Assembly (NCBI RefSeq): GCF_004010195.1
Contig: NC_057757.1
Coordinates: forward strand, 8,519,458 to 8,583,457
Source: Chiloscyllium plagiosum
Lineage: Eukaryota
DNA: 64,000 nt
Direction of reading: 5' to 3'
Position numbers and translations under genes: made by a program. A model generated the notes under the pieces. It was not told the origin of the DNA. It ran no database searches and was given only the letters and a program-made list of their open reading frames with translations. Of the stretch, positions 10,221 to 50,428 are shown one piece after another (the stretch's first letter is position 1; the number at the start of each line of letters is the position of its first letter).

Positions 10221-11131
10221 TCAATTTTTTAAAATCTTCACAAAGAAATTGATGGAAAATTTAATCCCACTCCTTAACTCATTTCTGAACTTACTCTGGG
10301 TCCCTGCATAAATAAATGGGTTTATACAGGAACTTAACATCTGCAGCATGTACCCTACTTCTTCAAGAATGAAATTGGACTTATTGTAATTGGAACCTGA
10401 GAAATAACTCATGTTTGAAATTCGGACGTAGAGAAATGTTAACACATACAGCATCCATAACAGGACAAAACTGCCTGAGATACAGAAGAGCAGAATGATG
10501 GACTTTCTCCGGTTCCTGACCTCCATGTCATTCGGATTTTCCGACTGTTTGCCAACATGGAGTCTTTTGCGAGTTTGAATAGCCTTTAGGATTTGTCTGA
10601 CAGTCACAGCGTTGAGCAGTAAGATCAAAACGAATGGGAGACAAGGGGTTGAAATGAAATTAATCCAATGATATGCAGCCCATACAGATGAGGTGTAAAA
10701 TATAGACTTAAGTTTGCAATACCATGGTATATTATCAATTGTATATAATGGTTCATATATGAAATACCAGAATGTATTTTTGATACTGCTCATTCCACAA
10801 ACTGCCCCTATAACCACAGCTGCTACTTTCTCTGTGCAATATCTTGTCTTCATTTTTTGGCAAGAAATGGCTACAAATCGATCAATAGTGAATATGACAG
10901 TTGCCCAGACAGAACAATCCTTGCTTGCAGACATTAGTGCATAACTGACAGTACAGACTGGGGTGATATACATGACACTGCGTGGGAAGTAAATACCAAC
11001 AATACGGTTCAATATTACAGCTGTAATAATGATCAGCAGGTCTGTCACCGCCATGCATACGAGGTAGTAAGTGATGCATCTGGAGAGACCACACCTTCCT
11101 CTGGATAGGATCATAATCACTGCCACATTAG
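10221..11131 (-). CDS. GPR139-like class A GPCR, gene A, exon 2 (end of TM1 to TM7)
   Basis: Open frame with YLVCMAVTDLL, FTIDRFVAISC, RRKSIILLF and NPFIY; polypyrimidine tract and TGCAG acceptor (AG at 11133-11132), phase 1; spliced product 326 aa. Confidence 0.92.
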
Positions 11132-11569
11132 CTGCAATTTGAAAAAGAGACACAATCCAGAGGATAATAGAAATGAAACAGTGAGAGAGACACAGAGAGC
11201 AGAAACATAAGACTTGACTTCTCAAATAAAAGTTTTATTTTCAGAATTTTGGGTGAAATTTTCAGATCTGATACTTATAGTGAAACTAATTCTCCATTCT
11301 ATCAACAAGAATTTGAAGCTAAAATGTAGTAACTAGCCTTTAAAATTGATTATGTCACATTCACTCACACCTATTAAATGGCAATATTATTATCCACATT
11401 ATTGTGTTGAATAAAAGATTATAACATAATGTGGGTGTGATTATGGTTTTCTGGATTTCCATTAGTAATGTTGGTGAATGCTCAAGATCAATTTTCAGCA
11501 GTTCTCCTGATTCCCAGCTGTAAGGTTCAGTTATATACATTAACACACATGTTATGAGATTTTGTTCAG

Positions 11570-11780
11570 AAAGGGCTTGGTTGGGTGACTGGGCTGCAAT
11601 GCTGTTCAATGGTAATAGTGTGGGTTCAATTGCTGCACTGGCTGAGGTTACCATGAAGGTCTCTCCTCATCAACCTCTCCCCTTCCCTGAAGCATGATGA
11701 CCCCCAGGTTAAACCACCAATAACCATTCCTCCCAAATGAGAGAGCAACCCAATGGTCTAGTCAGACAATGGCAACTTTA
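11570..11780 (+). mobile_element. Old tRNA-derived SINE in the gene A intron
   Basis: B-box-like gggttcaattgc followed by a SINE-like body; family not established. Confidence 0.45.
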
Positions 11781-12199
11781 GCTTAACTGATTAATATCGA
11801 GACACACCATGTAAGCAGCATTCCCACTGGAGCTGCACAGGAGAATCAGGATAAGATATTTCCTTCTGCAATTGTGCAGATTGAACTACAACCTTTAAAC
11901 ACACATAGGAAAGATGCCACTTAAGTATAGCTCTTTAAGAAAACAATGAGAGTAGGAACATTTCAGACCATCGCCTCAGTATGGCCGCCACATGTGCACT
12001 GAGCAAATATCAGTCACAGGTCATTTTGAAGGTCAAGCTGATACTGAACCAGGAATGGAGTTAGAGGTTGAGAATGGAAACCCAGCGTTTTGTGGAGATT
12101 TTAAAAAGCACTTTCTGAAGAAAGCGACCAGACATATTCCATTTTCACCACATGCACATACTTTTGTTTTCACAACTTGTCACAAGGTAATATCATATT

Positions 12200-12405
12200 G
12201 CTGCACAAGCAGATCTAGCAGCATCTGTCAAGAAAAATACAGAGTTAACTTTTCGGGTCTGGTGACCTTTCTGCAGAACTTCTGAGGGAAGGGTCACTCA
12301 ACCTGAAAATTTAACTTCAATGTCTCTTCACAGATGCTGCCAGACCTGTAGAGCTTTTCCAGCTTTTCTGTGTTTGTTTCTGATTTGCAGCATCTGCAGT
12401 ACTTT
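12200..12405. mobile_element. Degenerate Penelope-derived palindrome
   Basis: Arms cagcatctgt..agttaacttttcgggt..gtgacc and ggtcac..acctgaaaatttaact..acagatgctg. Confidence 0.65.
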
Positions 12406-13837
12406 TGGATTTTCTCATTTCTCCGTAGTCGGGTGTCACATTCAGCTGAGAAATTTTAATCCCCTGAATATTGTGACTTTACACGAGGCATTTAATTATC
12501 ATGCACAGTGAGAAAGAGTCATCATATCATCGACATACAGCTACCTCTTGATTGCAGTGAATTAATAACCAATATAATCATTAATCTTTCCAATCTAATC
12601 TAGCATGTAAACCTGTCCCAAAACGTAGGAAGTTCAGAGAGGTTCTGAGGACAATTCTCCTTCACCCAGAGGGTCGTGAGATCTGAAATGTTCTGCCTGG
12701 AAGTGTAGTCGAGATGGGAAACCTCACATCATTCAAACAAAGGATGTGGATGAGCCTTTGAGATGGTAAAACATTCAAGGCTATGGGTTTGAAAGTGGAA
12801 CTAATGCAGATTTAGAGTAATTCTGTTGATGCAGACTCGATGGACCTCTTCTACACTATATGTTTCTACGTTTCTATGGTTACACACCTGTGATTCAGAT
12901 CATGAAGATGGACACTAGAAACTAATTGTCACTGCATTTTTGCTTAAATTTCAGAGTGAAACATTACACATGGATACCTCCTAACTCTACTCCAGGCCAG
13001 CTTCCCATCATAATGGTTTTGAATCGCATGTTGGGGATGCATTCTAGGATACCTACAGAGGCGCTGGCACTTGAACTTCTGACCCAGAGGTTGGGACACT
13101 GTATAACACAATCCTTCGTTATAATGACAGAGGTGGCAGACCAACCCACAACCATAGGGCACAATACACAATGTCCTTCAATGCACAACAGGAACAGAAG
13201 GTGCAATTATTTTTGGACCATCAGTTCATGGAAGTTACAACACACCTCAGGCACAGAAGGGACTGCAACCCAAACTTCATGGCACAGTGATAGAGACCAA
13301 ACAATGTTGTCACAAGGTCATTTTTAGGTTAGATTTCTGGATATTATGCGCTTCAGTGATGACCCACTCCCAAAGCTCTCTGCAGGTACACAATTAATGT
13401 CATTTTATGAAACCATCACATGCGTTTGAGAAATCTGTATGTTACCATACTTCTATTCATTCATGGAATGTAACCATCTTCACTGGCTGGGCCAGCATTT
13501 ATTGTCTCTCCGAACTGCCCTGACAATTGTCTTTGAGAGTTTCCCTTGTGCATCTCTGCCATGCCTCCCCTCTCACTGCTGTTCAGAGTGTCATCAGCTA
13601 ACTGGATACTGTCTGTTGGGAGCTGTGTCTGGTCAGCTTTTTTCCCCTAGTTCCCTACCTTTAAGACACTATTTAAAAACACAACTACTAATTGACCGCA
13701 ATTTTATTTCCCGTCACGATGGTCAGCATTCTACTGGAAAACCTGCCAGCCTCACTCCTGTTACGTTGATTCTCTTGCTCCTCGGATGCTGCCTGACCTG
13801 CTGCGCTTTTCCAGCACCATACCCTCGACTCACTCCT

Positions 13838-14420
13838 ATTATGGACAAGACCAGACTCCCTCAACATATTTAAGAATATCACCTAAACCCTAACTTTTTC
13901 TTATTTTAAAGATGGATGTGAAGTGTCATGTTCTATTTAAACACTGTAATTAAAATACAAACTAAAGAAAGAGGAATTTTGAATAGTTTAACACTATTGG
14001 AAAACTTAACTGAATAACAGATGCAGTAACTGGTACTAATGAAGTGTTCAAATATAATGACATCCCATAAACACACCTCTTAGCAAAAAGGCTATTTCAG
14101 ACACAGACTCTGACATGCAGTTCTCCAGTCTAGGAGGAAAGTAACATCAAGAGAAGGTTCAGAGAGAGTAGCAGTGAGGTGACATTTCCTGAAGCTACAA
14201 ACTCTTTTCAGACCCCAATGGCTACTGCTGCTGAAAGCTAAGAAAAACCCGAAAGCCTGGCCTTTCAGAGCCGGCCACACTCACTCAGGCTGTTTCCAAG
14301 GCTTCACAAGTTGTTTATTTAAACCATCTTCATTAGGCAGGTCCTCACCTCTGTCCTACAACCACTTTTCAAAAAACCACCAGGGCAACATCATCTCTTA
14401 CAGTAACAGCATCATCTCAC
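13838..14420 (-). mobile_element. Gmr1-type solo LTR
   Basis: Reverse-complement similarity to the 23267-23890 LTR family. Confidence 0.6.
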
Positions 14421-14929
14421 TCCATTACAAGTGACATAAATCCACAACGTTCTCTTGTAGCTGCTGGCTATCATTCACTCACATTGGTGGCTCAACACAT
14501 GGAATAATATCTGTGGTCACATGATCAAGAATGATAAAGGGGACACTTGCAGGGAAGGTTTGACACTTTAAGTCAAAATATAGCAAACGTACACAGCAGA
14601 TATGTAATTCACTGGTAGAAATACTACCTTTGATGATATTTTAAAACTATCCTGTGAAAGGGAGCAAATTATTATGTGCAAGTCAATAAAATATTGTGCT
14701 AAAAGTGAGAAATGATAATATTCAGCCAAAACAATGATGTAGACGAAAGATAGAATTATAGCTAAAAAGCCACATGAATAAGTTCAAAGGAAATATCTTT
14801 CCAGAAAAGACAGTAGAGAGCTGAAAGGGAAGAAGTTACACAAAACAGACCAGCAATCACAGCGTTTTGTGTTGAGGGAGTTAAAATCAAAATAACTTTC
14901 AAACCGTGTGACAGATTGCAGTCCAGTAC

Positions 14930-14999
14930 TTGGCACCCCGATAGCTGCAAGGATGGGATAATAAATGGCAAAGAGCAGACCTTCTGGTACACCATGCAT
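14930..14999 (-). CDS. Gene A exon 1, proximal copy (MHGVPEGLLFAIYYPILAAIGVP)
   Basis: ATG at 14999, 70 nt, donor A|GTACTG, phase 1 matches exon 2 and gives GVPTN in TM1. Confidence 0.75.
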
Positions 15000-15039
15000 T
15001 TCGGTAAGATTCACTACTCCCCATATAGTGGGTGAGACA

Positions 15040-15100
15040 TTTATACCTGATGTGAGCCTCCCAGGGGCATCGAGATGTTTAGAGTTTGGAAATTAATTGC
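15040..15100 (-). promoter_or_regulatory. Gene A core promoter (repeated at ~15535-15595)
   Basis: TATAAA about 40 nt upstream of the ATG, TCCCAGGGG and AATTAATT motifs. Confidence 0.5.
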
Positions 15101-15424
15101 GAAATTGCAACAACTAAAGGGGAGCCATTTTGAAATTACTTTGACTTGACGTCTTATGCACCAAAGGTGAACGGTGAAAGACCCCTGTCTGATCCCAATC
15201 ACGTATCCTCAGATTAAAAAAAAAATTAGGAACAATAGAATGGAGTCATTAGTTACAGCAAAGATGAAGAATGCTGGAGAAACTCAGCAGGTCTGGCTGC
15301 ATCTGGAGAGAGAGAGAGAGAGATAGTGTTTTACACAAAACAGACCAGCAATCACAGTGTTTTGTGTTGAGGGAGCTAAAATCAAAAGAACTTTCAAACC
15401 GTGTGACAGATTGCAGTCCAGTAC

Positions 15425-15494
15425 CTGGCACCCCAATAGCTGCAAGGATGGGATAATAAATGGCAAAGAGCAGACCTTCTGGTACACCATGCAT
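15425..15494 (-). CDS. Gene A exon 1, distal copy
   Basis: ATG at 15494, 70 nt, donor CAG|GTACTG, gives GVPAN. Confidence 0.75.
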
Positions 15495-16010
15495 TCCAGT
15501 AAGATTCACTACTCCCCATATAGTGGGTGAGACATTTATACCTGATGTGAGCCTCCCAGCGGCAATGAGATGTTTAGAGTTTGGAAATTAATTGCGAAAT
15601 TGCAACAACTAAAGGGGAGCCGTTTTGAAATTACTTTGACTTGACGTCATATGCACCAAAGGTGAACGGTGAAAGACCCCTGTCTGATCCCAATCACGTA
15701 TCCTCAGATTAAAAAAAAAATTAGGAACAATAGAATGGAGTCATTAGTTACAGCAAAGATGAAGAATGCTGGAGAAACTCAGCAGGTCTGGCTGCATCTG
15801 GAGAGAGAGAGAGAGATAGTGTTTCGAGTCTAGCATAACACTTTTTAAGAACTCAGTTCTGAGTAAAAACAAATTCAATGAATTACTGCAATTGGATGGT
15901 ACACAGTGCTATGACTCTGCGTGGAGGTCAATTTAGACACCGGAGAGACAAAGTGTATTCAGTTAAAAAGTAAATTTTGAGGCGGGAAAGACTGAAAGAC
16001 TGTGATATCA

Positions 16011-16067
16011 AGAATATTATCTCAGAATATTATCTCAGAATATTATCTCAGAATATTATCTCAGAAT
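16011..16067. repeat. 13-bp tandem repeat (agaatattatctc), about 4 copies
   Basis: Seen directly. Confidence 0.9.
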
Positions 16068-17208
16068 CCCTACATCTCAGGATCCATACAGTGTGGAAAC
16101 AGGCCCTTCAGCCCAACAAGTCTCTAAATTGGAAGGGGACTCATATACTGATAGGGAGATTTAGTAGAGCTGCTCGGGAGGATTTAAACTACTAAGGTGG
16201 AGGGTGGGGTGGGCGGAATAGTGAGAAAAGATTTCAATCTGAGACTGGTACAGTTGAGAACAAAGGCGAGTCAAACAGTCAGGGCAGGCAGGGACAAGGT
16301 AGGACTAATAAATTAAACTGATTCCCGGAAATACATCCAGGGAAGTTATTTGTAAGGAGCTGAGAAACAAGAAAGGGATGATCACTTTATTGGGACTATA
16401 TTATAGACCCCCTAATAGTCAGAGGGAAATTGAGAAACAAATTTGTAAGGAGATTTCAGTTAACTGTAAGAATAATAGGGTAGTTATGGTAGGGGATTTT
16501 AACTTTCCAAACATCGACTGGGACTGCCATAGTGTTAAGGGTTTAGTGTTAAGGAGAGGAATTTGTTAAGTGGGTACAAGAATATTTTCTGATTTAGTGT
16601 GTGGATATGCCTACTAGAGAAGGTGCAAAAGTTGACCTACTCTTGGGAAATAAGGCAGGGCAGGTGACTGAGGTGTCAGTGGGGGAGCACTTTGGGGCCA
16701 GCGACCATAATTCTATTAGATTTAAAGCAGTGATGTAAAAGGATAGACCAGATCTAAAAGTTGAAGTTCTAAATTGGAGAAAGGCCAATTTTGACGGTAT
16801 TAGGCAAGAACTTTCGAAAGCTGATTGGGGCAGATGTTCATAAGTAAAGGGACGGCTGGAAAATGGGAAGCCTTTAGAAATGAGATAACGAGAACCCAGA
16901 GAAAGTATATTCCTGATAGGGTGAAAGGAAAGGCTGGTAGGTCTAGGGAATGCTGGATGACTAAAGAAATTGAGGGTTTGGTTAAGAAAAGGAAGGAAGC
17001 TTATGTCAGGTATAGACAGGATAGATCGAATGAATCATTAGAAGAGTATAAAGGCAGCAGGAGTGTACTTAAGAGGGAAATCAGGAGGGCAAAAAGGGGA
17101 CATGATCTAGCTTTGGCAAATCGAATTAAGGAGAATCCAAAGGGTTTTTACAAATACATTAAGGACAAAAGGGTAACTAGGGAGAGAATAGGGCCCTTCA
17201 AATGACCA

Positions 17209-17427
17209 AGGAGAAAGTGAGGACTGCAGATGCTGGAGATCAGAGCTGAAAGTGTGTTGCTGGAAAAGCGCAGCAGGTCATGCAGCATCCAAGGAACAGG
17301 AGAATCGATGTTTCGGGCATAAGCCCTTCTTCAGGATTCCTAAAGAAGGGCTTATGCCCGAAACATCGATTCTCCTGTTCCTTGGATGCTGCCTGACTGC
17401 TGCGCTTTTCCAGCAACACATTTTCAC
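17209..17427. mobile_element. Penelope-derived palindromic element with hammerhead cores and a 15-bp TSD
   Basis: Near-perfect inverted repeat 17248-17426; TSD cccttcaaatga(c/t)ca at 17194-17208 and 17428-17442. Confidence 0.85.
17304..17335 (-). ncRNA. Minimal hammerhead ribozyme motif (Penelope type)
   Basis: Minus strand CCUGAAGA-A-GGGC-UUAU-GCCC-GAAAC-AUCG gives CUGANGA, stem II and GAAA; a mutated mirror copy lies at 17339-17370 on plus. Confidence 0.65.
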
Positions 17428-18450: not shown

Positions 18451-18618
18451 NNNNNNNNNNNNNNNNNNNNNNNNNNNNNNNNNNNNNNNNNNNNNNNNNN
18501 NNNNNNNNNNNNNNNNNNNNNNNNNNNNNNNNNNNNNNNNNNNNNNNNNNNNNNNNNNNNNNNNNNNNNNNNNNNNNNNNNNNNNNNNNNNNNNNNNNNN
18601 NNNNNNNNNNNNNNNNNN
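18451..18618. other. Assembly gap (168 N)
   Basis: N run flanked by GA-rich repeats. Confidence 1.
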
Positions 18619-18633
18619 GAGAGAAATCCCAAG

Positions 18634-18666
<33 letters not shown>

Positions 18667-19160
18667 GAGAAGAGAGATACCAAAGATAGCTAGTGAAAGA
18701 GAGAGAGGGGGGTGGGTGATGGTATTAGTCAGTTAGAGTGATCCTCAGGCAGGAACAGCAAGATCCCTCAGGGCTGACAGAGAGAGGGGTGTAAGGAGAG
18801 GTGAGCAGGGAGGTTGGAGATTGAACAATTCAACAGTTCCAGGAAAGAGGGATGATATAGAGTTTTGTGGGAGGGAATCTACTGGGGAATGTGACCAGGG
18901 CAGAGATGGGATTTAAGGAAAGGTGTGGGACAGACAGAGACAGAGAAAGTGAGCTGAGAACACAGAGGTAGAGATGGGAGCTGGAGAGCAAGAGAGAGGC
19001 AGTGACATCTGTGGGATCAGACTGTGCGGCAGCTCCCTCTACATGTGGATGGCAGTGCTAGAGACCGGCGTTCAATTCCCGCCTCAGGCAACTGTCTGTG
19101 TGGAGTTTGCACATTCTCCCCGTGTCTGTGCGGGTTTCTTCTGGGTGCTCCGGTTTCCTC

Positions 19161-19660
19161 NNNNNNNNNNNNNNNNNNNNNNNNNNNNNNNNNNNNNNNN
19201 NNNNNNNNNNNNNNNNNNNNNNNNNNNNNNNNNNNNNNNNNNNNNNNNNNNNNNNNNNNNNNNNNNNNNNNNNNNNNNNNNNNNNNNNNNNNNNNNNNNN
19301 NNNNNNNNNNNNNNNNNNNNNNNNNNNNNNNNNNNNNNNNNNNNNNNNNNNNNNNNNNNNNNNNNNNNNNNNNNNNNNNNNNNNNNNNNNNNNNNNNNNN
19401 NNNNNNNNNNNNNNNNNNNNNNNNNNNNNNNNNNNNNNNNNNNNNNNNNNNNNNNNNNNNNNNNNNNNNNNNNNNNNNNNNNNNNNNNNNNNNNNNNNNN
19501 NNNNNNNNNNNNNNNNNNNNNNNNNNNNNNNNNNNNNNNNNNNNNNNNNNNNNNNNNNNNNNNNNNNNNNNNNNNNNNNNNNNNNNNNNNNNNNNNNNNN
19601 NNNNNNNNNNNNNNNNNNNNNNNNNNNNNNNNNNNNNNNNNNNNNNNNNNNNNNNNNNNN
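19161..19660. other. Assembly gap (500 N)
   Basis: N run directly after a partial SINE at 19055-19160. Confidence 1.
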
Positions 19661-29692: not shown

Positions 29693-32600
29693 ATTCCCCT
29701 GCAAAGAAATGAATCATAAATGTATAAAAAGGTTTCATTTTGAAAAATATTTAGTCCTACGATATAAGTACACAATAGTTGTACATTACGTTAAGTATTG
29801 TGAAGAAGCTGCTCCCATAGCAAGGTCAAATTGTCCTCGGGTTTCTTTCAGAGAGGTTGTAAATGACACAGGTTTACATTTAAGGTTGGATGGATATGAA
29901 GGCAAATGTGTTTACAGCTAACAAATAACGTCTCAAGCAGGAAGCTTTCATGTGTGTGTGTGTGTGTGTGTGTGTGTAAAGACTGCTGTCCCCTCTGTAT
30001 CTCTCTGACTTCTTTCCTTAAGAACGTGTGTGCCATTTTACCTTTTCTGACAAGGAGTGTTTATTATGTGAGGATTGTTGCAAGTATCATTAAGTTGGGA
30101 TAGTGTATTGGGTTTTCAGACAGGATAAGTTATTTGGTATTCTGATTTCTGTTCTTTGTGTTTCATTCAGTAACTAAATTCTCTTCTGTTAAACACTAAG
30201 TGATTCTCTTCTAGATTACCCACTTTACACCTGCTTAAAACCATTAGCAAAGCTGGGGTCTGAGCTACCTTTTTGAAATGATTTGAGGAGTCCAGTCTAG
30301 TCCATAACAGATTAAGGGCTCTTTGTGGGATTTGTTCTGTCATTCCAAAGTAGGATAGAATTGTAGGACTCAATGGCAGCGAGTGGTATGTGTTAGTGTC
30401 TTTTGTTTAGGATATTGATTTTGGTTGTTGTACACAGTGCTTGGGAGAGCAATGGCTCTTTAAGACACAAAGAGTTTTCTGGGAGGAAAGGAGTGGAAGA
30501 CGTGAAGTTGAGGGTTTTATAAGTACATAATAGTTGTACATTACATTGAGTATTGCGAAGAAGCTGCTCCCATAACAAGGTCAATTGTCCTCGGGTTTCT
30601 TTCAGAGAGGTTGTAAATGACACAGGTTCTGAAACGTCTAAGGTTTCAGAAAACCTTAGATATCTGAAGGTATCTGAAAACCCAATACACTATCCCAACT
30701 TATTGATACTTGCAACAATCCTAACATAATAAACACTCCTTGTCAGAAAAGGTAAAATGGCACACACGTTCTTAAGGAAAGAAGTCAGAGAGATACAGAG
30801 GGTACAGCAGTCTACACACACACACCCCCACACACCCCAGACCAGTGAAAAGCTGAGTTGAGGGAACTGGCCAGATCCTTTTTTAAAGGTGGTTAAGGCC
30901 ATGCGGCGGGAATTAGCAGGCCAGCTGGAGTTGGTGCTGCCTGCTTCCATGACTAAGGGAGAGGTAATTACAGTAATAGCACAGCACCATCAGAATCTTT
31001 AGAAATGGCTAAAATTCAATTGCAAATGAAGCAGCTCGGGTTAGAGACAAAATGCAAGGAAAAGGCAACAGAAATGAAACAATTTGAATTACGACTAAAA
31101 GCAGAAGACAGAGGAAAAGTAGAGAGCATCTGAACTTCAGAAATTGGCACTTGGACAGGCAATTCAGCTTAAAAGGATGGAGATGAAGGCAGAAGATAAG
31201 TTCAGTGAGGAAGATAGTGAGGATGTGCAAACCCATGGTAGCTAATGACCTGGTGAGAAACTGTTCAAATATATTCAAGCATTGTCTCAATTTGATGATA
31301 AGGATGTGGACGCCTCTTTCATTTCATTTGAAAAAAAGTGACTAAACAAATGACTATGTGGGCATTTTTGATCCAAACAAAGTTGGGAGGTAGGCCGAGT
31401 GAGGTATTTGCATCACTTTTGGGGGGGGGGGGGTATCTGGGGAGTTTGAGGAAATGAAGAAAATCATTTTAAGTGCATATGAGCTTGTGCCAGAAGCATA
31501 TAGACAACGTTTCAGGAATCTAAGGAGGGAACCTGGTCATACCTATATTGAGGTTAAAAGAATCAAACAAAGTAATTTTGATAGGTGGATAATAACATTA
31601 AAAACAGAGCAAACCTACAACGCTCTTAGAGAGACAATTGTTTTGGAGGAGGTCAAAAATTTATTTCCTGAAGTAGTGTAAATTCATGTGCAAGAGCAGA
31701 GAGTTAAAATGGCAATATTGGCATCTAAAATGGCTGACCGTTATGGGTTGGTCTATAAAAGAAATCTTGGCTTCTAGAATCAATTTCAATCCATGCAGAA
31801 TAGAATTTGTGGAAAAGAGAAATCCTGACGTGGAAAGTGAAAGGTAGATCTCGGTGAAGCAGATAAGGAGAATTTACCACAGGGTGAACAGGAAACCCTT
31901 GAAAGGGACAGAGAATTTAAAAAAGCTCTGGTGGTTTCACTGCAATAAAATTGTCCATTTGAAATCATAGTGTTGGTGGGTAAGGAAAAGTGCTGGGTAG
32001 CCAGATATAGGAAAATAGGGACAGTCTTTGAATTTTGTTGGAGTGATAACAGAAAGTACAGTGGAGACTGGAAAGTCGCACCAGAATGTACAAGCTGGAG
32101 GCTGATTAAGGAGGAAGAGACAGATCTCCTTAAAAAATACAGCTGCGAAGGTAAAGTTTATTCACATTGGCCACGGGCAGCTGTTAAAGAGGTTAAAATA
32201 TGAAGAGACACAGCATCCTCTCAATCTGTGATTCTAAAAGATGAGTAGATATGTACTTCTGGAGGACTGTTGCCAGAAAAGGTCCTGGTGACGGGAATTC
32301 ATGGTGAGACAAACAGGGCTCAATTATGTAAAATGGGGCTAGAGTGTCGAGAGAAGGGTAGAGAATTCATGATAGGAGGACTGAACAAACTCTCAGCCAC
32401 AGGAGTACAATTTGTCCTTGCTAACGATGTAGCTGATCCAGTGAAAACTCAGGCAACTGAACAATTGCAGGACACATATCCTGGAATTTTGATGATTGTA
32501 GGGTAACGAGATCAAAAGTCAGCAGTTGAAACAAGATAGAACAAAGAATATAGATACTAAAGTTGAAGTGGAATTAGCAGAGACCCTCTTTGATCAAATA

Positions 32601-34367
32601 GTTGAGACAATGCAAACATCTTTAGCTCAGATAAATTAACTGAGTTCCAGTAGAAAGATGGAACCTTAAAGAAGTTTTATCAAAAGGCATACACGGAAAT
32701 GAAATGTGAATGTATCCCTGAGTGTTACTACCTTAAAAATGATATTTTAATTTAGAAACAGAGACCATCACGTATTCAGGAAGATGAGAAATGGGCAGAA
32801 ATTCATCAAATCGTATTTCCAGTGAGTTATAGAAAGGAGGTGTTGCGACTGGCGTCATTTAGGAGTGATGAAAACACAAACTAAAATACTAAAACATTTT
32901 TACTGGCCTGGACAGCGCAAGGATGTAGTTGAATCTTGCCAGACGTGTCATCCATTGAAGGTAATTGGAAACCCACAGGCGGTAATAAAACCTGCACTTT
33001 TATTACCTATTCCAGCATTTGAAGAACCTTTTACAGGTGTCTTAATTGATTGTGTAGGTCCCCTACCTCAAACAAAATGTGGGAATCAGTATTTGGCCAC
33101 AATAATGGATGTATCAACTAGATTTCCAGAGGCCATCCCATTGCACGATTTTATAGCTGAAAGGATTGTTGTGGAATTACTCATTTTATTGACAAGATAT
33201 GGACTACCAATAGTGATACAATCAAATCAATGCTCACATTTAAGGAAGTTATGGACAGCTGAGGAATGAAACAATTGAAATCTACTGCACACCATCCTGA
33301 GTTACAGGGAGCGCAAGAAAAATGGCATCAGATATTAAAGACCATGTTGAGGACGTATAGTATCCAGATGAATGAGATAAGGGAATTCTGTTTGTACTTT
33401 TTGCAATCAGGGATACAGCAAATGAATTGACCAATTTGAATCCATTTGAATTAGTTTCTGGGCATGAAGTGAGAGAACCACTAAAAATGATTAAAGTGAA
33501 ATTGGTAAGTCAGAATTCAGAGACAAGATATTTAGACTATGAATCAAATTTGAGGAAACAATTGAATAGTGCTGGGAAGTTACCTAGACAACATTTAAAA
33601 GTGTCTCAGCATCTAATGAAATAGGAATCAGACAAGCAAACAGAATTTCATAATTTTGCTATCGAGGATAATGTGTTAGTGTTATTTCCAGTGATAGGTA
33701 AACCATTGCAAGCAAAGTTTAGTGGACCTTTTCAAGTCGAATGAAAATTTAATGCAGTGAACTACTTAATAGGGACTCCGGATGGAAAGATATCCCACAG
33801 TGTGTATCACGTGAATATGAGCAAAAGGTATTTTGACAGGGAAGCAAAGCAAGAGGAGAATGTATTATTGAATAGAAAACAGAGGGAAGAACCAAGCCCG
33901 ATTCTGAATTGGACATTTCTCAAATTAAGTTAGACAATGAAGAGGTTGCCAAATATTGGATGAAATAGTTGAGTTACCTTCCCAAGGAAAATCAAAATCA
34001 ACTGAAAGAGTTATTACGATCACATGGGGAGATAAGTGGAAATAAGCTGGGAAGTACTAACCTAATTATGCATGATGTAGACATAGGAGGTGCTGTTCCG
34101 ATTAACCAACATCCTTGTTGACATAGCCCTCGAAAGTTGGCACAGATTCAGATGGAGATTAAACACAAGCCCCAAGATGACATTATCTAAATAAGTTGCA
34201 GTGACTGGAGCTCACCCATAGTTTTGAAGACAATGTTGAGAAGGTGGGACAAGCAACTTATATTTCTAAGTTGGACGTGCTCAGAGGATACTGACAGGTA
34301 CCTTTCTCAGAAAGATCAAAGACAACTTCAGCTTTCGTAACACTGAATGGACTGTATCAGTTAAAAG

Positions 34368-36779: not shown

Positions 36780-38605
36780 GTACCTGTTTTCTCCATCACT
36801 GAACGCCTCCATCTTCCTTCATCAAAGTCACAAAAAGGCGTTGACAATTACGTTTTCTCTTCCTGCCAGGTGTATAATTTTCAAATTGAATGGCCGTAAT
36901 AATAATCTTTGTACAAACAGTCTGGAAGTTTTGTGCTTGAACTTCTCTAAACATTTATGGAGTTTTGATATATGTACAATTATCTCAGTCGCCTCGCTGG
37001 CAGTACAAATATTGAAATGTTGCAAAACCAAGTGCAAGGTTTCCTTATCAATCATAGAATATTTCTATTGATGTTTATTCAATTTTCTGTAAAAGATCGA
37101 ACAGGTCTTTCTAACCTCTCATTACCTTACATAGAACATGGAGCATAGAACAGTACAGCACAGTACAGGCCCTTCAGCCCTCGATGTAGTGCCGGCCATT
37201 TATTCTACTGTAAGGTCAGACTAACCTGCATACACTTCATTGTACTAACTTCCATATGCCTATCCAAGAGTGGCCTAAACAGCTCTAATGTATCTGACTC
37301 TACTACCAATGCTGGCAGGGCATTCCACACACACCACTCTCTAAGTAAAGAACTGACATCTCCCCAAAACCTCAGCCAATTGCCTTAAAATTATGCCCCC
37401 TCATGATAGAAATTTCCACGATGGGACAAAATCTCTTACTATCCACTATCTATGCCTCTCGACATCTTGTACACTTTTATCAAATCACCTCCCATTCTTC
37501 TTCACTCCAACGAGAAAAGCCCTAGCTCCCTCAACCTTCCTTTATAAAGCATGCCCTTCAGTCCAAGCAGTATCTTGGTAAAACCCCTCTGCACCCTCTC
37601 AGAAGCGTCCATATCTTTCCTACAATGATGCGACCAGAACAGAATGCAATATTCTGAGTGTGGTCTAACCAGGACTCGATAAAGCTGCAGCAAAAACTCG
37701 CAGCTCCTCAGCTCAATCGCCCTGCTAATGAAAGCCAACATAACATAGAGCCTTCTTACCAACCCTATGGGTGCTTGCCACCTCAAATTGGGTGGCAACT
37801 ATGAAGGATCTATGGATATGGACCCAAGCCCCTCTGTTCCTCCACAATGCTCAGAATCCTGCCTTTAACCCTGTATTCTGCATTCAAATGTGACCTTCTG
37901 AACTGAATCACTTCACACTTTTCCAGGTTGAACTCAATCTGCCACCTCTCGGCTCAGCTCTGCATCCTGTCAATGTCCAGTTGCAAACTATGAAGCGTTC
38001 ACACTATCCACAAATCCACCAACCTTCATGCCATTTCCAAACTTACTAATCCGCCCTCCTGCTTCCTCATGCAAATAATTTATAAAAATCAAAAACAGCA
38101 GAGATTCAACAACAGATCCCTGTGAAACACCACTGGTCACCGAGCTCCAGTCTGAATAGTTTTTATCTACTACTACCCTCTGTCTTCTATGGGCTGGTCA
38201 ATTCTGATTTCCCTGTATCCCATGCCTCCTTATTTCTGAATGAGCCTACCATGAGCAACCTTATCGAACACCTTACTAAAATCCATATACAACATGTCCA
38301 CTGTTCTACCTTCATCAATGTCTTTTCCCAAATCCTCAAAGAACTTAATGAGACTTGTAAGGCATTACCTGCCCCTCACAAAGCCATGCTGACTACCTCG
38401 AATCAAACTATGTTTCATTGACTAGTCTTCATGCAAGAATACAACATCGGACCCCATATTACTAGCACCTTGAATGGCTTTGCGTAATTAATAATGGCTA
38501 ACACTGGAGCAAATGCCTTCCGACAGTCTGCTGTCCACTGACATTTTCTGTGCTTCTTCAATAAGTCAATCAGTGGAACTACCACGTTGCTAAAATTTGG
38601 TTCCA
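36780..38605 (-). mobile_element. Gmr1 RT/RNase H fragment split by a CR1 (37130-38415, minus)
   Basis: WTADCRKAF..PVLA at 38416-38605 continues as IDKETL..PFNLKIIHLAGRENV at 36830-37125. Confidence 0.8.
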
Positions 38606-39758
38606 CCTGATGGCATATGTCAGGTAGCTCCGTTGTTTGGGTGTCTGGCTTGTCATTCACTGTGTCCCCCCTCAGTCCAGATTTTTGCAAGGAAGCAGAT
38701 GTTCTGTGAAGCTCCCTCGAAATCTTATATATTTCAAGAAGATCATTTCGGAAGGACGAGGTGACATGAACGAGGGTGCAGAGGAGGATAACTAGGATGT
38801 TGCCTGGGCTGGAGGGTTTGAACAATGAGGTAAGAAAGGATAGGCTGGAGGCTGTTTTCCTTGGAGCAGCGAAGGCTGAAATGGAAACTTTTAGAAATGT
38901 ACAAGATAATGAGGGATATAAATAGGGTGAAGAGGAAGGCAGCTCCTCCATTTGTAGTGGGGTCATTAACCGAGGAAAGGGGGCATTTATTTCAGATAAA
39001 GGATAGAAGGCTGAGAGGAGATTTGTGGCCAATTGCTTTTCACTCAGAAGGTGAAAAGAATCTGGGACTCCATACCTGAAAGGGTAATGTGTCACAAACT
39101 CTTTCACTACACAAGCCATATTGGGTGGGGCTCTTAAGTTGTAGTGGTAGCGTTCATACCTTTGGGCCAGGAGGCTTCAGGTTCAAACCCCCGCAGGATA
39201 TGAAATCGTCTAAACAAAACATTTATTTTTTAAAAAGATCTATAAGAAGTATTTCGATAACCACTTGTTGTGCCATTGCTTCAGGACAATGAGCTAAAAG
39301 CTGGAAAACGCAATTTAGTTGCAGCCAGGTCTCGGTGGTGGGGTGTGGGGTTTGGTGGTGGAGGGCTGCCATGTCCACAATGTCCTTAAATATCAATAAG
39401 TGCATTACATCACATGAATGATGCTGCAACATTTAGACCTCCATTTGACAACTATTCAAGGATTAATCCTTGTCCCCGTTTCTCTCTTCAGTTGATTTGA
39501 AAAGCAAAATATTTGACCTTTTGTGACTACAAAAAGAAATGTGAACTTAATACATAACGTCCTTTGCTCTGTAGAAATGTGTCTGAGTGTAAGTGAGTAG
39601 CTGAATGTGTTTGTTTAATGACTGTGATTAATCCCAATCCCAATGGGGCCATGATTGACACAGGAGAGCGTTCCCAGTATAATATGTAGGAGGAATCCTC
39701 TCTAAGTGCCAGTGAAATCCTTGTTTCTCCTTGAATGTGTTTCGAGGACTGAAGCCCC

Positions 39759-39900
39759 ATGCTGGAATTATACGGAAGCTCATGTCTCAGCCAAAGTGAG
39801 AAGTCCGGCTGGACCTTGATTGCACTGCTCAGGATACAGTTTGTTTTCCGGGATATACAGAAATTGTACTATCCCATCCTGGCTGCTTTTGGTGGTCCGT
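39759..39900 (+). CDS. GPR139-like gene B exon 1
   Basis: MLELYG..IQKLYYPILAAFGGP shares YYPILAA.G.P with gene A exon 1; donor GTAAGT at 39901; phase 1. Confidence 0.8.
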
Positions 39901-40523: not shown

Positions 40524-40828
40524 TGTGCATTACATCACATGAACGATGCTGCAACATTTTGACCTCCTTTCGATTTTGGTTCAAGGATTATTCATTGTTT
40601 TCGTTTCTCTCTTCGACCAATTTGCAAAACAAAAATGTCTGTCCCTTTGTGTTTTTAGAACAAAATCTGATAACTCAGCTTGTAATGTCGTTTGCTCTGT
40701 AGAAATGTGTCTGAGTGCAGGCGAGTACCTGAGTGTGTTTGTGCAGTGATTGTGATTTAACACCATTCCCCATGGGGCCACGATTAAAACAAGACGTGCT
40801 TCCCAGTGTAATGTGTACGAGGAATCGT
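40524..40828 (+). repeat. Diverged copy of the gene B upstream region (39397-39697)
   Basis: Shared gtgcattacatcacatgaa...gaggaatc colinear block. Confidence 0.85.
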
Positions 40829-43755: not shown

Positions 43756-43849
43756 GTTTAAACTGGGGACCCCTGTAGTAATATTTGGTGTGTAATCTTA
43801 CTGAATAGGTTTTGGAAATCCAAACACAGTACATCATTCAGTTTAAAAA

Positions 43850-44420
43850 CTGAAAGTGCTGAAGAAACTCAACAAGTTTGGCAACATTTATGGAGAGAGA
43901 AACAGAGTTAACATTTTGAGACCAGTATGCTTGGAAGGCGAAAGGTAGATGCAGGTTTAGGGCGATAGTGATGCGTCGGAATGGAGGGTGGGGCGGATAG
44001 GTGGGAAGGAAGATGGATACATCGGAATGTACAAGAGCGTGGTGCCGAGTTGGAAGGTAGGATCTGGAATGACACGTGGAGAGGTGAGATGAGGAAACTG
44101 ATGAAATCGACATTGATGTCATGTGGTTGGAGGATTCATAAGGAGGAAGATGTGATTTTCTTCCACCAAGCGTCGAATGCCTTGGATTAGCGGTGGAGGA
44201 GGTCCAGGGCTTTAATGTCTTTGGCGGAGTGGAAGGGGAAGTTAAAGTAGTTGGCCACAGTGCGGTGGGGTTGTTTGATGCGTGGCACTCAGAGATGTTC
44301 CCTGAAGCATTTTTTCATGTTGGCTTCTTGTTGCCCCAATGTAGAGGAGTCAACATCCAAAAGCAATGGACACAGTAGATGAGGTGTTCGGATGTACAGA
44401 AAATCTCTGCCAGATGTGGA
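43850..44420 (-). mobile_element. Penelope-like element 3' fragment (GIY-YIG endonuclease region and terminus)
   Basis: Minus-strand LYIG near 44340, VANYFNFP.HS, QPHDINVDFISF. Confidence 0.7.
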
Positions 44421-45277
44421 AGAATCCTCCACCGCTAAATCCTGGCCACCCAACAAGGTTCACATCGTTAAAGTTACAGGGCTGTGAATGTCTGAATTAC
44501 AAAATGCTCATACTTATGAACGCAATTTTATACACAGCTGTAACTTTAAAAATACAACACACTAATATCTCCTGTATTTGTGAATAGTTCTTTTATATTG
44601 TCCTGCATTGTGTTCTGAACTACACAGAGATTGACTTGTGAACACATTCACATCCCCTGGTGGCTGTAAGGTCTGTATTTTCAGTATTGGAATTGGATGA
44701 GGACATAAATTAGAAGCAGAGGTAGAACATTCAGCCCCTTCTCCCTGAAGACCCATTCATTAAAATCTGCTTGTTACTTAAATCCATGTGCCTTCTGACC
44801 CTCAACAACTGGTAGATCTGAAATAGCATTAAGGTTTTCATTTCTTTATCTTATCATTATTTATAGCTAGACAGCAATCTTTGCCATAGCCTGTGCTAAT
44901 ATTGATAAAGTACTAGTCCTACTCAGTCACACTTACTACTGGCCCATTTCTCATTTGTTATTGCAGGATCCCAAAGCCACTAAGTTGACACTGCTAACCT
45001 TCATCTGACCTCACCTTTTCACTTCAGTCTCTGCCTTAATTCATTTGGATCCGTGTTATTCTCTTTAATGAGGAGAAGTCAAAATGGCTGGTGTTGCTCT
45101 CCCTGGAGTGGGAAGGGTCAGCATGAAACTGAGTGACACGAGAAACAATGAAGGATTCTGACAGTGGGGATCTGGAGAAACTGGTCCCAAGCCAGGAGTG
45201 TTAACAATGAAATAACACAGATCATGGGAATTGATGAAGGTTTGACACGAAGGATGAGTTGTGCTGAATGATAAAAG

Positions 45278-45796
45278 TGTGACGATGCTGTGACTTTCAG
45301 GGGTCACATTGTCCTGTCTTTTTTAGGAAGAAGGGTTGAGACAGAGGTGCTAAACGGTCTGCTCAAAGCCAATAAAGGAAACAGATTGTGAAGCCTTGTG
45401 TTTTTTTTAGAAGTTGTAACAGTAGAAGCAGTCTGAATGGGTGGTGTCACGTTCCAACAGGACCCAGGTTTTTTGTTTAACATTTGTCAGAAGCTGGTTG
45501 TGGCTGCTCTTATTCATTTTCCTGTGACATTTAAAAGCTGGGGTTCACTTCCTGCTGCTGGTGCTGCATGTGAGATGACCCATTTTACTGATCCTGTCTT
45601 TGCCAAGGCTGTGTTTATGGGGTGTTACAGTATTGAAACAGTAAAATAAAGTGTGTTTTGCTTAAACTCGAGTGGTTTGCACAATTGAATTGTATCTGGA
45701 CTGCAAAGCCTTACACTTCACCTCAGAGTACAAGAAAGTTAGGGTCTCGGCTATCTTCTTAATATATCTAGTGGGGGTCTCGTCTGTTCCACAACT
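45278..45796 (+). mobile_element. Gmr1-type solo LTR
   Basis: tgccaagg.tgtgtttatggg and aaagttagggtctcggcta motifs shared with the other LTRs. Confidence 0.6.
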
Positions 45797-46599
45797 TATG
45801 CAAAAAGAAATTGACCCACAATGCCTGGTGGAAGTTGATAATTGCCACTTTCAGTCGAAGTATTGAATATAAAAGCAGTGAAGCTTTTTCTTTTAAAAAA
45901 AATATAACGTTCGTAAGGCCACAACTGGAGTACTTTGCCAGTTCTGGCCGCAGGATAAGATGGATATGATTGCATGTGAGAGGGTGCAGAGGGTTCATGT
46001 TGCCTGGGCTGGAGCAGTTCAGCTATGGATGAAGACTGGATAGGTTGGGATGTTTTCCTTCGAGCAGAAAAGGCTAGGGTTACTGGATTGAAGGCCAAGT
46101 TGGATCTTCATTTCTGAGCGGCAGAGACAGGTCGAATCCTTTCCCCTTCACAGAGGGATTAGTAACTAAAAGACGCGGTTTTATAACAAGGAACAGGGGG
46201 TTTTCAGTAGAAATCACAGAATCCTTACTCTGCAGAAAGCGGCCATTGGGCACATCGAGTTTGCAGTGACCCACCCTGGACACTGCGGAGCAATATAGCA
46301 TGACCAATACAGCCATGCTGGGCAATAGAGGGAGAGCAGAGGAAACCCACACAAACACGGGGAGAACGTACAAACTCCACACAGGCAGTCACCCAAGGCT
46401 GGGATCGAACCCAAAGGCTTGGCACTGAGAGGCTGCCGTGCTAACTCCTGAGCCACATTGAGAGACGGCTGAATGCAAAGAATTGTACCTATCTGGAACT
46501 CACTGCTGAAAAGGTGGTTGAAGCAAGTACTATTTAGAGGAGCATTCAATGGCATTCAAGGCTATGCCCACGTGCTGAAAAATGGAATGAGAATACTTT

Positions 46600-48590
46600 G
46601 CTTCAGTGTGCAATACTGAGAAGTATCTTGATGTTTCTGTGGACAGCGTGAAACAGATTGATAAGCTAGAACAGGTTAATGTTAGGCGGGAGAATATGCT
46701 GGAAATTTTGAAAAATGTAAGGATAGATAAATCACCGGGTCAGACAGGATTTACCCTCGGTTACTACAGGAAGCAAAGGAAAAGATTGCTGCACGTTTGG
46801 CTATGATCGTTGCATCCTCAGTGACCGCTGGAGTAATGCCAGATGTTTGGAGGGTGGCACATGTTATACCCTTGTTCAAGAAAAGGAAAAGGGATAATCC
46901 TGGGAATTACATGCCAGTCAGTGGCGGGCAAAATATTGGAGATTGTTCTGAGAGACAGGATGAATGATTACTTGGAAAACCATAGTTTGATTAGAGATAG
47001 TCACCTTGGCTTTGTGAGGGACAGGTCATGCCTCACAAACCTTATTGAATTCTTTGAGGCTGCAACAAAATGCGGTGGCACGATGGTACAGTGTCACAGT
47101 GATTAGCACTGCTACCTCACGGCGCCAGAGAACTGGGTTCAATTCCGGCCTCAGGCAACTGTCTGTGTGGAGTTTTCACATTCTCCCCGTGTCTGCGCGG
47201 GTTTAATCCGGGTGCTCTGGTTTCCTCCCACAGTCCAAAAACGTGCAGGTTAGGTGAATTGGCCATGCTAAATTGCCCGTACTGTTAGGTGCAAGGGAAT
47301 GGGTCTGTGTGGGTTGCTCTTTAGAGGGGCGGTGTGGACTTGTTGGGCCAAAGGCCCTGTTTCCACGCTGTAAGTAATCTAATCTAAAATACGTTGATGA
47401 AGGTGGATGTGGTGTACATAGATTTCAGTAAGGCATTTGATAGGATTCCCATAGTAAGCTCATTCAGAAACTAAGGGGGGATGGGATACAGGGAAGTTTG
47501 GCTGACTGAATACAGAATTGGCTGGCCCATAGAAGACAGAGGGTGGTAATAAATGGAAAAAAATAAGTAGCCTGGAGCACAGTGACTAGTGGTGTTCTGC
47601 GGGGATCTGTTCTGGAAATTCTGCTCTTTGCAATTTTTATAAATGATTTGGATGAGGAAGTGGATTAATAAGTTTGTTGATAAAACGTACATTGATGGAG
47701 TTGTGGAGGGCTGTTGTTGGTTGCAATAGGATATTGACAGGATGCAGAACTGGGCTGATAAGTGGCAAATGGACTTCAACCCGGAAAAGTGTGAAGTCAT
47801 TCATTTTGTAGGGTTGAATTTGAATTTGAAAGCAGAGTTAAATGCAGAATTCCTGGCAGTGTGGAGGAACAGACGGATCCTGGGGTCTATGTGCATAGAT
47901 CTCTCAAAGTTGCCGCCCAGGTTGATAGGAGGTTGTTAAGAAGATGTGGTGTGTTGGCTTTCATGAGCAACGCGATTGAGTTTAAGAACCGTGAGTTGAT
48001 GCTGCAGCGCTATAAAGCCCTGGTTAGACCACATTTGGAGTATTGTATTCAGTTCTGATCACCTCATCATCGGAAATTTGTGGAAATTTTACAGAGAGTG
48101 CAGAAGAGGTTTATCAGGATGCTGCCTACAAAGTAGAATTTGAGGGCGTGTTATATGAAGGAAGGTTGAATGAGCTAGGCCTTTTCTCATTGGAGAAAGA
48201 AGGATGAGATTTGACTTGACAGAGGTGTACAAAATATTGAGAGGCACAGAGAGAGTGCATAGCCAGATAATTTTTCCCATTGTGTAAATTTCTATAGGGA
48301 GGGGGCATAATTTTAAGGTGATTGGAAGAAGTTTTAGGGGAATGTCAGAGTTAGGTTCTTAACTCAGAGAGTCGTGGGTGTGTGGAATGCACTGCCAGCA
48401 GTGGTAGTAGAGTCAGCTACATTACTGATATTTAAGTGACTCTTGGCAAGGCAGATGAAATATAGTATAATGAAAGGTATGTAGGTTAGTATAATCTTTG
48501 AGGAGGATACAAGGCCGGTACAACATCAAGGGCAGAAGGTCTGGTACTGTGTTGTACTATTCTATGTTCTTTGTTCTATGTTCTATGTTC
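46600..48590 (+). mobile_element. CR1 LINE RT to 3' end, with an HE1 SINE at 47071-47385
   Basis: DKSPG, SCLTNLIEFFE, FNPEKCEVIHF, RPHLEYCIQF, (TTCTATG)n tail. Confidence 0.9.
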
Positions 48591-49538
48591 TAGGTGGATG
48601 TTTGAAGGCCAGTGTGGCCATGATGAATCGAAGGGTCGCTTCCTGGGCTGAAAAACTCTATGGCTCAATGAGACCCGACTGAGATGTGCAAAACAGAATT
48701 GTGCAAACATTTGAAGGGGATAAGTATTGGAAGAAGTGATAGTTACTGGCCTAGTTGGATTGCCCTGAAAAAGATGGAACACAGTTAGTCTGGAATTGTT
48801 TGTTTTCGGTGTGCTTTGTCATGATGAATTATTTTGTTTGCATGCAGTGTGGTGATATGCCCTAAAGACCATAATCTTAATACATGAATGATGTAAAATG
48901 CCTGAAAAGGTTCATTGCAGCTAACCAAGTCATATCTCAAATAAAACCTATCTCCTTGCTCCACAACAGCAGGTTATATTGAGTTCTTACAGAGAGGGAT
49001 CTTCCTCACATCCTCAGGTCAGAGGATAGTGATGAGATCTTCAATCATTGCTGACCCTTCTTATAAAAGAGAATACTGAGGCATGAGCATTTACTATTAC
49101 TAATCTAACATCTCTCAATCATATTAAACCATTGTTGCTCGCTGCTTTAATGCCTTCTGAGAATGTGCTCAGCAGTGATTTTAAATTCCCTGTTAAGACC
49201 CACACTGTTAGCTATAATGAAATAATTTCACTATCTGTAGTCTGCGTTCATGCGAACTTTTACATGGTCTTATTACAATTTGTGACCACATTAACTTGGT
49301 AGTTGACGAGCTGATCCACCACAATCTAAGGTAGTGAACTCTATAGATTCACAGCCCTTTGAGAGAAGAATTTCATCCTCGTTTCTGTTTCAAATCTGAC
49401 ACCCCTTCATCTCAACCTGTGATATTTTCCTCTGGATTACCCCCACAAGGTGAAACAGCTGCTCTATATTGACGCTTAAAAACTCCATTAATATTGCCTT
49501 TTCTCTTATTCTAATCTGTCCCGTTTGCTTCCTTCTAG

Positions 49539-50428
49539 TTAACATGGTGACAATTCTAATCCTATATCGGGGTAAGTGCGCCCTCTCCAAGTCTGCCACG
49601 CGTTACCTGATAGCCATTGCAGTAGCAGATCTACTGATCATTATCTTCGATCTAATATGGAGGCATATAGCTTCAACTTATCGTTTGGAATTCAGTTTCT
49701 TGCTGTATATCCCAGTGTGTAACATCCACGCTGCTGCGCTCTACACAGTGACTGACTATTCAGTCTGGTTCACAGTCGGTTTCACATTCGATCGCTACAT
49801 CGCCATTTGCGCCCAGAAGTTGAAAACTAAATACTGCATGGAGAAAACAGCGACTGTGGTTCTAGCAACAATTGCTCTGCTATTCTCATTGAAAAATACT
49901 TTCTGGTATTTTATGTTCACAAGTCGATATGAGTTGGCAAGTCTATCTTGGCCTTGTTACGTGACAACAAGTGTTGCACAATCAGAAGTGTGGGGTGCTA
50001 TCGAATTCGTCCACTATATATTGACGCCATGCATTCCATTTGTTGCGATCTTGCTGTTCAATGTTTTAACGATCAGGTACATTTTAGTGACTAACAGAGC
50101 CCGCAGCAGACTCCGGAGTCATGGCTCCAGGGGGTGTCCCAGTGACCCTGAGGTGGAGAGTCGCAGAAAGTCCATAATTATCCTGTACGCTATATCAGGG
50201 AACTTCATATTGTTATGGGCAGTCTCTATGATCCACAATATTTATTGGAGAATGATTTACCTCGGTTATCAGACTGTGTACCTCCCTGTGTACATTAGGG
50301 AGGTGGGGTTCATGCTTCAGCTTCTGAGTTGCTGTACCAACACCGCCATCTACGCAGTAACACAACGCAAATTCAGAGAAGAGCTGAAGTATTTGTTTTC
50401 ATTTTCATTTATTACCAATAAAAAATAA
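49539..50428 (+). CDS. GPR139-like gene B exon 2
   Basis: Branch-like CTAAT at 49511, pyrimidine tract, TAG acceptor ending 49538; YLIAIAVADLL, FTFDRYIAIC, RRKSIIIL, NTAIY; spliced product 343 aa. Confidence 0.92.

Follow-up and report, generated by a model that had tools for sequence, protein, structure and literature searches.

The described chemoreceptors of vertebrates include the OR, TAAR, V1R/ORA, V2R/OlfC and T2R families, and in ten cartilaginous fishes the complete OR, TAAR, V1R and V2R genes together number 20 to 62, with a mean of 43.8 (PMC10869828). A "relative paucity" in G-protein coupled receptors (GPCRs) has been stated for cartilaginous fishes (PMC8455134). GPR139, the closest characterised human relative of the genes described here, is a two-exon gene whose human and zebrafish orthologues are 70% identical (PMC7318219). 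Binding of Trp and Phe has been tied to its residues F109, H187, W241, R244 and N271, with R244 and N271 as the polar anchor (PMC5430874). Here we analyse 64,000 nucleotides of the shark Chiloscyllium plagiosum (contig NC_057757.1, positions 8,519,458 to 8,583,457 of the forward strand; "the window", to which all coordinates refer), which carry two receptor genes that we term A and B. The original prediction for this locus saw in them a divergent pair of GPR139-like receptors from a lineage-expanded cluster. We find that A and B very probably belong to a real, expanded and selected gene family that is distinct from GPR139 itself.

Both are intact seven-transmembrane receptor genes, as had been predicted. 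They match Pfam 7tm_1 (PF00001) with 75.9 and 53.7 bits at a curated cut-off of 30.5 and no other Pfam family at an expectation value (E) of 0.1 or better, and both carry the class A motifs N1.50, D2.50, a DRY-like motif, P5.50 and Y7.53. In a six-frame scan the long stop-free frames are 337 codons from stop to stop for A (10224-11234, minus strand) and 324 codons for B (49454-50425, plus strand), while base shuffling of the window, repeated 50 times, gives none longer than 210 codons. A and B are arranged head to head, and 24 kb separate their start codons. The exons and the intron of gene B are placed as follows.

10221..11131, minus strand: gene A exon 2, 911 nt, phase-1 acceptor TTGCAG followed by CT, from the second half of transmembrane helix (TM) 1 to the stop codon; PF00001 E 4.7e-21
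14930..14999, minus strand: gene A exon 1, proximal copy, the same 23 codons as the distal copy, junction residue Thr
15425..15494, minus strand: gene A exon 1, distal copy, 70 nt, ATG, 23 codons plus 1 nt, phase-1 GT donor
39759..39900, plus strand: gene B exon 1, 142 nt, 47 codons plus 1 nt, phase 1, donor T followed by GTAAGT; putative start codon
39901..49538, plus strand: gene B intron, 9.6 kb, filled with repeats, predicted splice
49539..50428, plus strand: gene B exon 2, 890 nt, phase-1 acceptor; PF00001 E 2.7e-14

The pair is diverged, the exon-2 proteins being 43% identical, and the two-exon, phase-1 architecture split in TM1 is borne out: both acceptors are pyrimidine-rich AG sites and fall one base into the codon just before N1.50. 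The TM6 motifs LLWMLY and LLWAVS and the TM7 motifs NPFIY and NTAIY are present as the prediction had quoted them. Very short N-termini, which it had claimed for both genes, are a property of A only, since 24 residues precede N1.50 in A and 48 in B; exactly 24 residues are found in 77 of the 84 scorable models of the A set. The predicted product of A has 326 residues. For B it has 343, assuming as start the only in-frame ATG of exon 1, which lies downstream of an in-frame stop at 39750; the 3' half of this exon agrees with the N-termini of the homologues P0152 and P0134. Exon 2 of B shares 93% identity with a protein from Chiloscyllium punctatum. The predicted AlphaFold model of A's exon 2 is a TM helix bundle with a predicted local distance difference test score (pLDDT) of 77, and a hairpin is predicted in extracellular loop (ECL) 2 (strands 125-128 and 137-140).

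When the window was scanned in six frames with the family profile, neither a third copy nor a fragment appeared, so the cluster is demonstrated from other sharks and not from the window. At E ≤ 1e-10, 919 proteins match A and 1056 match B. The homologue sets used below are the best 120 of each, and rows beyond these may include outsiders; named elasmobranch proteins make up all 120 of A's best matches and 118 of the 120 of B's. Most are labelled "probable G-protein coupled receptor 139", with some "GPR15-like", "capa", "FMRFamide", "TRH" or "sex peptide receptor-like" among them. In the horn shark, Heterodontus francisci, a hand count of clusters at 90% identity comes to 119 or more (78 in A's best 120 and 41 more in B's), a number possibly somewhat inflated by alternative gene models or haplotigs, and 57 of the 78 lie on one 59.5-Mb record. 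The predicted lineage expansion and clustering are thus supported by evidence from other elasmobranchs, in numbers far from the one or two GPR139 orthologues that would have spoken against it. In the horn shark the counterparts of A and B, XP_067879934 and XP_067879943, share a 19.5-Mb record with other members and are nine accession numbers apart, which suggests an old mixed A/B cluster, accession order being a proxy for position only. Heptranchias holds near-identical recent copies in a 12-member cluster spread over several records. Catsharks, a stingray and a skate have members that diverge further, and there is no chimaera protein among the named rows of the matches listed. A metagenome scan gave 38 distant loci, none with E below 8e-9 and none a close family member, paralogue nucleotide sequences were absent from the viral and prokaryote collections, and the ESM Atlas matches are clusters bearing the same automatic name. 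In X4, summed contig depth over A exon 2 is 57-735 against 7-40 in several unique intron bins; X1 lacks this pattern, and we did not use depth as a copy number. One family representative, P0293, has a coiled-coil piece, which we take to be TRIM-like, fused N-terminally to the receptor in its predicted model; the fusion is probably a gene-model artefact, though it hints that some clusters have TRIM-type genes as neighbours.

How these genes relate to GPR139 depends on the query. A profile of 33 family sequences ranks human GPR139 first in the PDB with 69.6 bits (the chain is a fusion, and its score is possibly slightly lowered), ahead of 53.4 bits for the next entry and at most 49 for chemokine receptors. 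B alone also finds it as best match (33 bits, E 3.7e-7), while a search with A alone does not return human GPR139 at E ≤ 1e-3. The genes thus fall into a broad GPR139/GPR142 clan: among characterised human receptors GPR139 comes closest in the profile searches and with B, not with A alone. The likeness to human GPR139 (PDB 7VUG, 9M42) consists of N5.58 in place of Tyr, W6.48, an S-x-W in TM3, a YY...G.P.N pattern in TM1 and the two exons; the human intron presumably lies at the same codon and in the same phase as in the shark genes.

Taken by themselves, these shared features, the best PDB matches and a two-exon structure like that of GPR139 (PMC7318219) would suit co-orthologues of GPR139 and GPR142 that sense aromatic amino acids, an idea that we hold to be highly improbable. 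Orthologues as far apart as human and zebrafish keep the identity given above, and A does not even retrieve human GPR139 at E ≤ 1e-3. On the family profile, human GPR139 is outscored by proteins of a newt (215.5 bits), the coelacanth (192.6), amphioxus (131.6) and a leech (104.9). At the positions of F109, H187, W241, R244 and N271, A has S, N, W, Y and Y and B has Y, H, W, S and F, so that A keeps one of the five binding residues (W6.48 only) and B two (H and W) plus an F-to-Y exchange, and R244 and N271 are lost in both. Neither the identity level nor the set of five binding residues of a GPR139 orthologue is found in A or B. Because of the low scores, the better-scoring proteins of other animals and the lost binding residues, A and B are, to judge from their sequences, not orthologues of GPR139, which is simply the nearest characterised human gene. 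"GPR139-like" therefore stands as a label for the nearest named relative and falls as a statement about the pocket for aromatic amino acids, which is not kept.

Further differences concern the family as a whole. The shark family has a cysteine pair between C3.25 and ECL2, whereas in human GPR139 the aligned residue of TM3 is not a Cys. P6.50 is present in human GPR139 but kept by only 14 of 240 shark proteins, which also lack R6.51, mostly lack N7.39 and have D3.37 where human GPR139 has His. More than 100 copies in the horn shark contrast with the single conserved genes for GPR139 and GPR142. The missing P6.50 was also considered as a mark of kinship with GPR139 and rejected, as human GPR139 carries that proline (LWAPR). 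A Foldseek search was dropped as an identifier of the nearest class A receptor, since its near-equal E values do not discriminate: peptide receptors come first, E runs from 3.5e-8 to 4.9e-7 over 50 rows, and 7VUG ranks 20th.

The maximum-likelihood tree comprises 58 rows, hand-picked from about 530 stored proteins to span the groups, and is rooted on three protostome-like rows; it carries a long-branch warning at the root, and GPR139 and GPR142 themselves lie outside the sampled rows. All 32 elasmobranch rows form one clade (support 96/90), whose sister is an amphibian lineage (lineage i, seven tree rows, 100/99); among the rows analysed, the expanded clade itself is confined to cartilaginous fishes. 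Among the matches listed, lineage i has 18 rows from 18 amphibian species, one per species. Its members, named "probable GPR139" (for example Pleurodeles XP_069092602.1 and Xenopus tropicalis XP_031757816.1), share C3.25, the ECL2 Cys, N5.58 and the DR motif with the shark family and differ by a near-invariant pocket with K6.51, N7.39 and P6.50. We regard lineage i as an orphan receptor whose ligand is probably fixed. In this lineage (P0339, P0473), S1.50 and N2.50 replace the canonical N and D in 19 of 19 proteins. A further lineage (lineage ii, 11 tree rows, 100/99), with roughly one row for each species, spans sharks and ray-finned fishes, the coelacanth, amphibians and two reptiles, a lizard and a turtle; no mammal or bird occurs among the 120 matches listed of 185. 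Its members, again "probable GPR139" (Latimeria XP_005988539.1; sharks P0425, P0470 and P0488), belong to the same clan, have the cysteine pair and mostly lack P6.50 (T in 91%), but differ from the shark family in keeping R6.51 and in showing no expansion. W6.48 is mostly missing from lineage ii, from sharks to squamates and turtle (P0346, P0425, P0493, P0502). A third lineage consists of two long-branch rows, and amphioxus falls outside. A and B sit in two subfamilies (100/99 and 100/100), each with several shark orders and A's also with an electric ray; on this tree both subfamilies are older than the shark orders.

The comparison of A with B gives a nonsynonymous rate (dN) of 0.50 and a synonymous rate (dS) of 2.26 over 294 codons, a dN/dS of about 0.22 and not near 1; with dS near saturation, the value shows net purifying selection only. 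Across 240 shark proteins N5.58 and the ECL2 Cys are invariant (240 of 240 each) and C3.25 nearly so (239 of 240), and the intracellular face is conserved (DR[FY], N5.58, Y7.53). To locate the variation, column entropy at 28 positions, which we take to line the class A pocket, was compared with that at the remaining positions of TM2, TM3, TM5-7 and the second half of TM1, with 20000 random position sets as reference. Pocket entropy is 2.08 times that of the other TM positions in A's 120 matches and 2.22 times in 57 horn-shark paralogues from one record, a level reached by 0 of the 20000 random sets in either case; in A's subfamily the variable ligand-facing residues lie deep in the pocket. The ratio is 0.13 in 19 amphibian proteins and 0.71 in 46 lineage-ii proteins, the single-copy lineages. 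K or R at 6.51 is found in 100% of both single-copy lineages and is mostly F, L or Y in the shark sets; N7.39 is invariant in the amphibian lineage. D3.37, D or E at 5.39 and E7.36 form an acidic set conserved in both shark subfamilies. Since both single-copy lineages keep K or R at 6.51, the amphibian one also N7.39, and the sharks have the acidic set, the expansion coincides with the loss of a polar anchor of the GPR139 type and the gain of an acidic pocket.

The same observations bear on the possibility that the family reflects genomic drift, in which segmental duplication in repeat-rich regions would copy a compact two-exon cassette and leave most copies redundant or silent. Purifying selection between A and B, motifs invariant across 240 proteins, variation that in A's subfamily is concentrated at ligand-facing positions and subfamilies kept across shark orders all speak against this, and we consider it quite improbable. 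The protein collection shows mainly open frames, so that pseudogenes would largely escape notice in it. Among the matches listed the species counts are very uneven, as drift would predict, and a local duplication of promoter and exon 1 at gene A fits it as well. The corresponding features are these.

14836..15824, no strand assigned: tandem duplication that takes in the TATA-like box, exon 1 and donor of A, period 495, 2 copies, 14 differences, 97% identical
15535..15540, minus strand: TATAAA, candidate TATA box of the distal copy, 46 nt upstream of its ATG
15040-15045, minus strand: second candidate TATAAA, in the proximal duplicate copy
10197..10202, minus strand: candidate polyadenylation signal AATAAA, about 20 nt past A's stop codon

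Both exon-1 copies are intact, so that gene A could use either as its first exon, with a single residue, at the junction, differing between the two. The distal copy yields Ala there, a residue shared with the closest homologues (N-termini of P0001, P0004 and P0007). The 495-bp duplication could be a recent event or an assembly effect; of seven variants in it in X4, two agree with the other copy and five are private. Near gene B, the 300-bp segment immediately 5' of exon 1 (39400-39697) is repeated inside the intron (40525-40826) at 77% identity without the exon, possibly as an older promoter-region duplication.

Our best reading of the family is a repertoire of detectors diversified by ligand, and we infer this function from anatomy and evolution alone. 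A and B would be two old subfamily members of an elasmobranch class A GPCR family evolving by birth and death, which may have arisen from an unnamed gene of the GPR139/GPR142 clan whose bony-vertebrate counterpart is seen only in amphibians, once per species. The ligands would form a class marked by a basic group, either amines or peptides with Arg or Lys, and each paralogue would bind its own variant; the acidic residues would grip the basic group, and different paralogues would accept different side groups. All would signal through the same G protein, which is probably Gq/11 by analogy with GPR139, itself coupled to Gq (PMC6367278; PMC12287315). In the weakest step of this proposal, the ligands would be external, water-borne cues met by sensory cells (olfactory, taste or skin), and the family would form an extra chemoreceptor repertoire. 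Chemosensation is the most likely single role, at a little under an even chance.

Expansion, clustering and pocket variation would also fit if the same mechanism served another cell type. The receptors might then be immune or barrier sensors on leukocytes, mast-like cells or skin or gut epithelium that respond to microbial or host cationic peptides, for which mammalian FPRs and MRGPRs offer a model. The acidic pocket set and the predicted ECL2 hairpin suit basic peptides, and the near-identical recent copies in the Heptranchias cluster agree with such a role. MAS1 and its relatives are reported missing from cartilaginous fishes (PMC8455134), so that a functional stand-in is conceivable. The nearest solved relative in the profile search, on the other hand, is the neuronal GPR139 and not a chemoattractant receptor, the chemokine receptors scoring well below it. 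We judge an immune or barrier role unlikely, though it is the nearest competitor of chemosensation.

Several points weigh against a chemosensory, ligand-diversified repertoire. The diversified ligand pockets of the original prediction hold for A's subfamily and not for B's, where the 120 matches show no significant pocket excess (ratio 1.14, with 4921 of 20000 random sets as high) and variation is found on the outer rim and in the loops, at 6.58, 7.32, 7.35, ECL1 and ECL2 (1.7 bits), around an almost fixed deep pocket. The entropy ratio ignores phylogeny and differs from dN/dS, and the list of pocket positions is our assumption. In the single-cell run X8, from an unstated tissue and with about 2% of it covered, depth is zero at 10151-11018, which takes in most of A's exon 2, and over both copies of A's exon 1; the 1776 reads on 9500-16000 are partial matches concentrated on intronic repeats. 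This lack of exon reads would also suit silent copies produced by drift. Read set X1 was rejected as RNA and is treated as DNA, because its reads run unspliced across the intron/exon boundary of A and cover the introns. A top-50 list for catshark "brain & olfactory epithelium" is without any GPCR (PMC11979771), which is weak counter-evidence because no known olfactory receptor is in it either.

The remaining points concern the kind of ligand. A and B each lie within a small subtree that spans several shark orders, for which conserved ligands are an equally good explanation. The relatives with known ligands, GPR139 and the protostome receptors of the MIP/FMRFamide type (PMC8514136), answer internal signals. 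On another reading the ligands would be peptides or metabolites made by the animal itself, and the receptors would act in a neural, endocrine or reproductive setting (on sperm, for instance), having been duplicated for dosage or tissue specificity. Such a role agrees with the conserved deep pocket of B and its counterparts across shark orders, with the binding of dynorphin (PMC12287315) and of Trp and Phe by GPR139, with the neuropeptide receptors among protostome clan members (PMC8514136) and with the peptide receptors at the top of the fold search, undiscriminating as that search is. More than 100 paralogues in one species and an A pocket twice as variable as its TM background are, in contrast, hard to square with few ligands, and it is the single-copy relatives, with ratios of 0.13 and 0.71, that show the fixed-ligand pattern. 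We regard endogenous signalling as rather improbable, behind the immune alternative and ahead of drift.

The surroundings of the genes are rich in decayed repeats. Broken retrovirus-like pol pieces in different frames, which we take to be RNase H- and integrase-like, lie at 5120-6476, near a 33-bp tandem array at 7174-7726. Further broken pieces at 31403-33266 and 38418-39176 are presumably gypsy-like (gag/integrase and reverse transcriptase), and CR1/L2-like long interspersed element (LINE) fragments are dispersed across the window. Other tandem arrays have units of 59 bp (688-1088) and 30/56/86 bp (61428-62346). Close to the genes, Tandem Repeats Finder (TRF) gives a single array upstream of A, 57 bp long with period 13 at a distance of about 520 bp, and none in the 3.7 kb upstream of B. 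Two assembly gaps, 18451-18618 and 19161-19660, separate A and B.

Expanded GPCR repertoires are already known, the FPR and MRGPR expansions being comparable cases, and we found no report of a vertebrate expansion from the GPR139 clan. With the chemoreceptor families OR, TAAR, V1R/ORA, V2R/OlfC and T2R (PMC10869828) the shark family shares lineage-specific expansion, clustering, compact genes, a short N-terminus in the A type and a variable pocket above a conserved intracellular side. It differs in having no match to those families, with PF00001 as its sole Pfam match at E ≤ 0.1, and whereas those families are defined by sensory expression, the shark family is known from genes alone. The genes are already annotated automatically at NCBI; the family itself is apparently undescribed. 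Searches of open-licence full text in PMC and bioRxiv turned up no account of either the expansion or the unnamed bony-vertebrate lineages, though subscription papers or supplements could hold one. The available parts of the main texts of PMC11979771, PMC10620051, PMC10115646, PMC8455134 and PMC10869828 make no mention of GPR139 or GPR, and the 24 supplements of PMC8455134 contain one orthogroup label "GPR142".

Whatever it does, a family that reaches 119 or more distinct members in one shark while going by the automatic name "probable GPR139" qualifies the view of cartilaginous fishes as poor in GPCRs. In its fullest form our proposal is that elasmobranchs possess a further chemoreceptor family, in the horn shark at least larger than OR, TAAR, V1R and V2R combined, that arose independently from an orphan peptide or amino-acid receptor of the GPR139 clan through loss of R6.51 and N7.39 and that reads amines or basic peptides in the water. 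As a whole this is possible but doubtful. If the family is sensory, it would add an independently evolved class of vertebrate chemoreceptors, and if its members do detect water-borne amines or basic peptides, this would explain why sharks have many olfactory neurons and few known receptor genes. For laboratory work towards the ancestral ligand, Xenopus offers the single-copy sister gene of the amphibians, and ray-finned fishes offer lineage ii.

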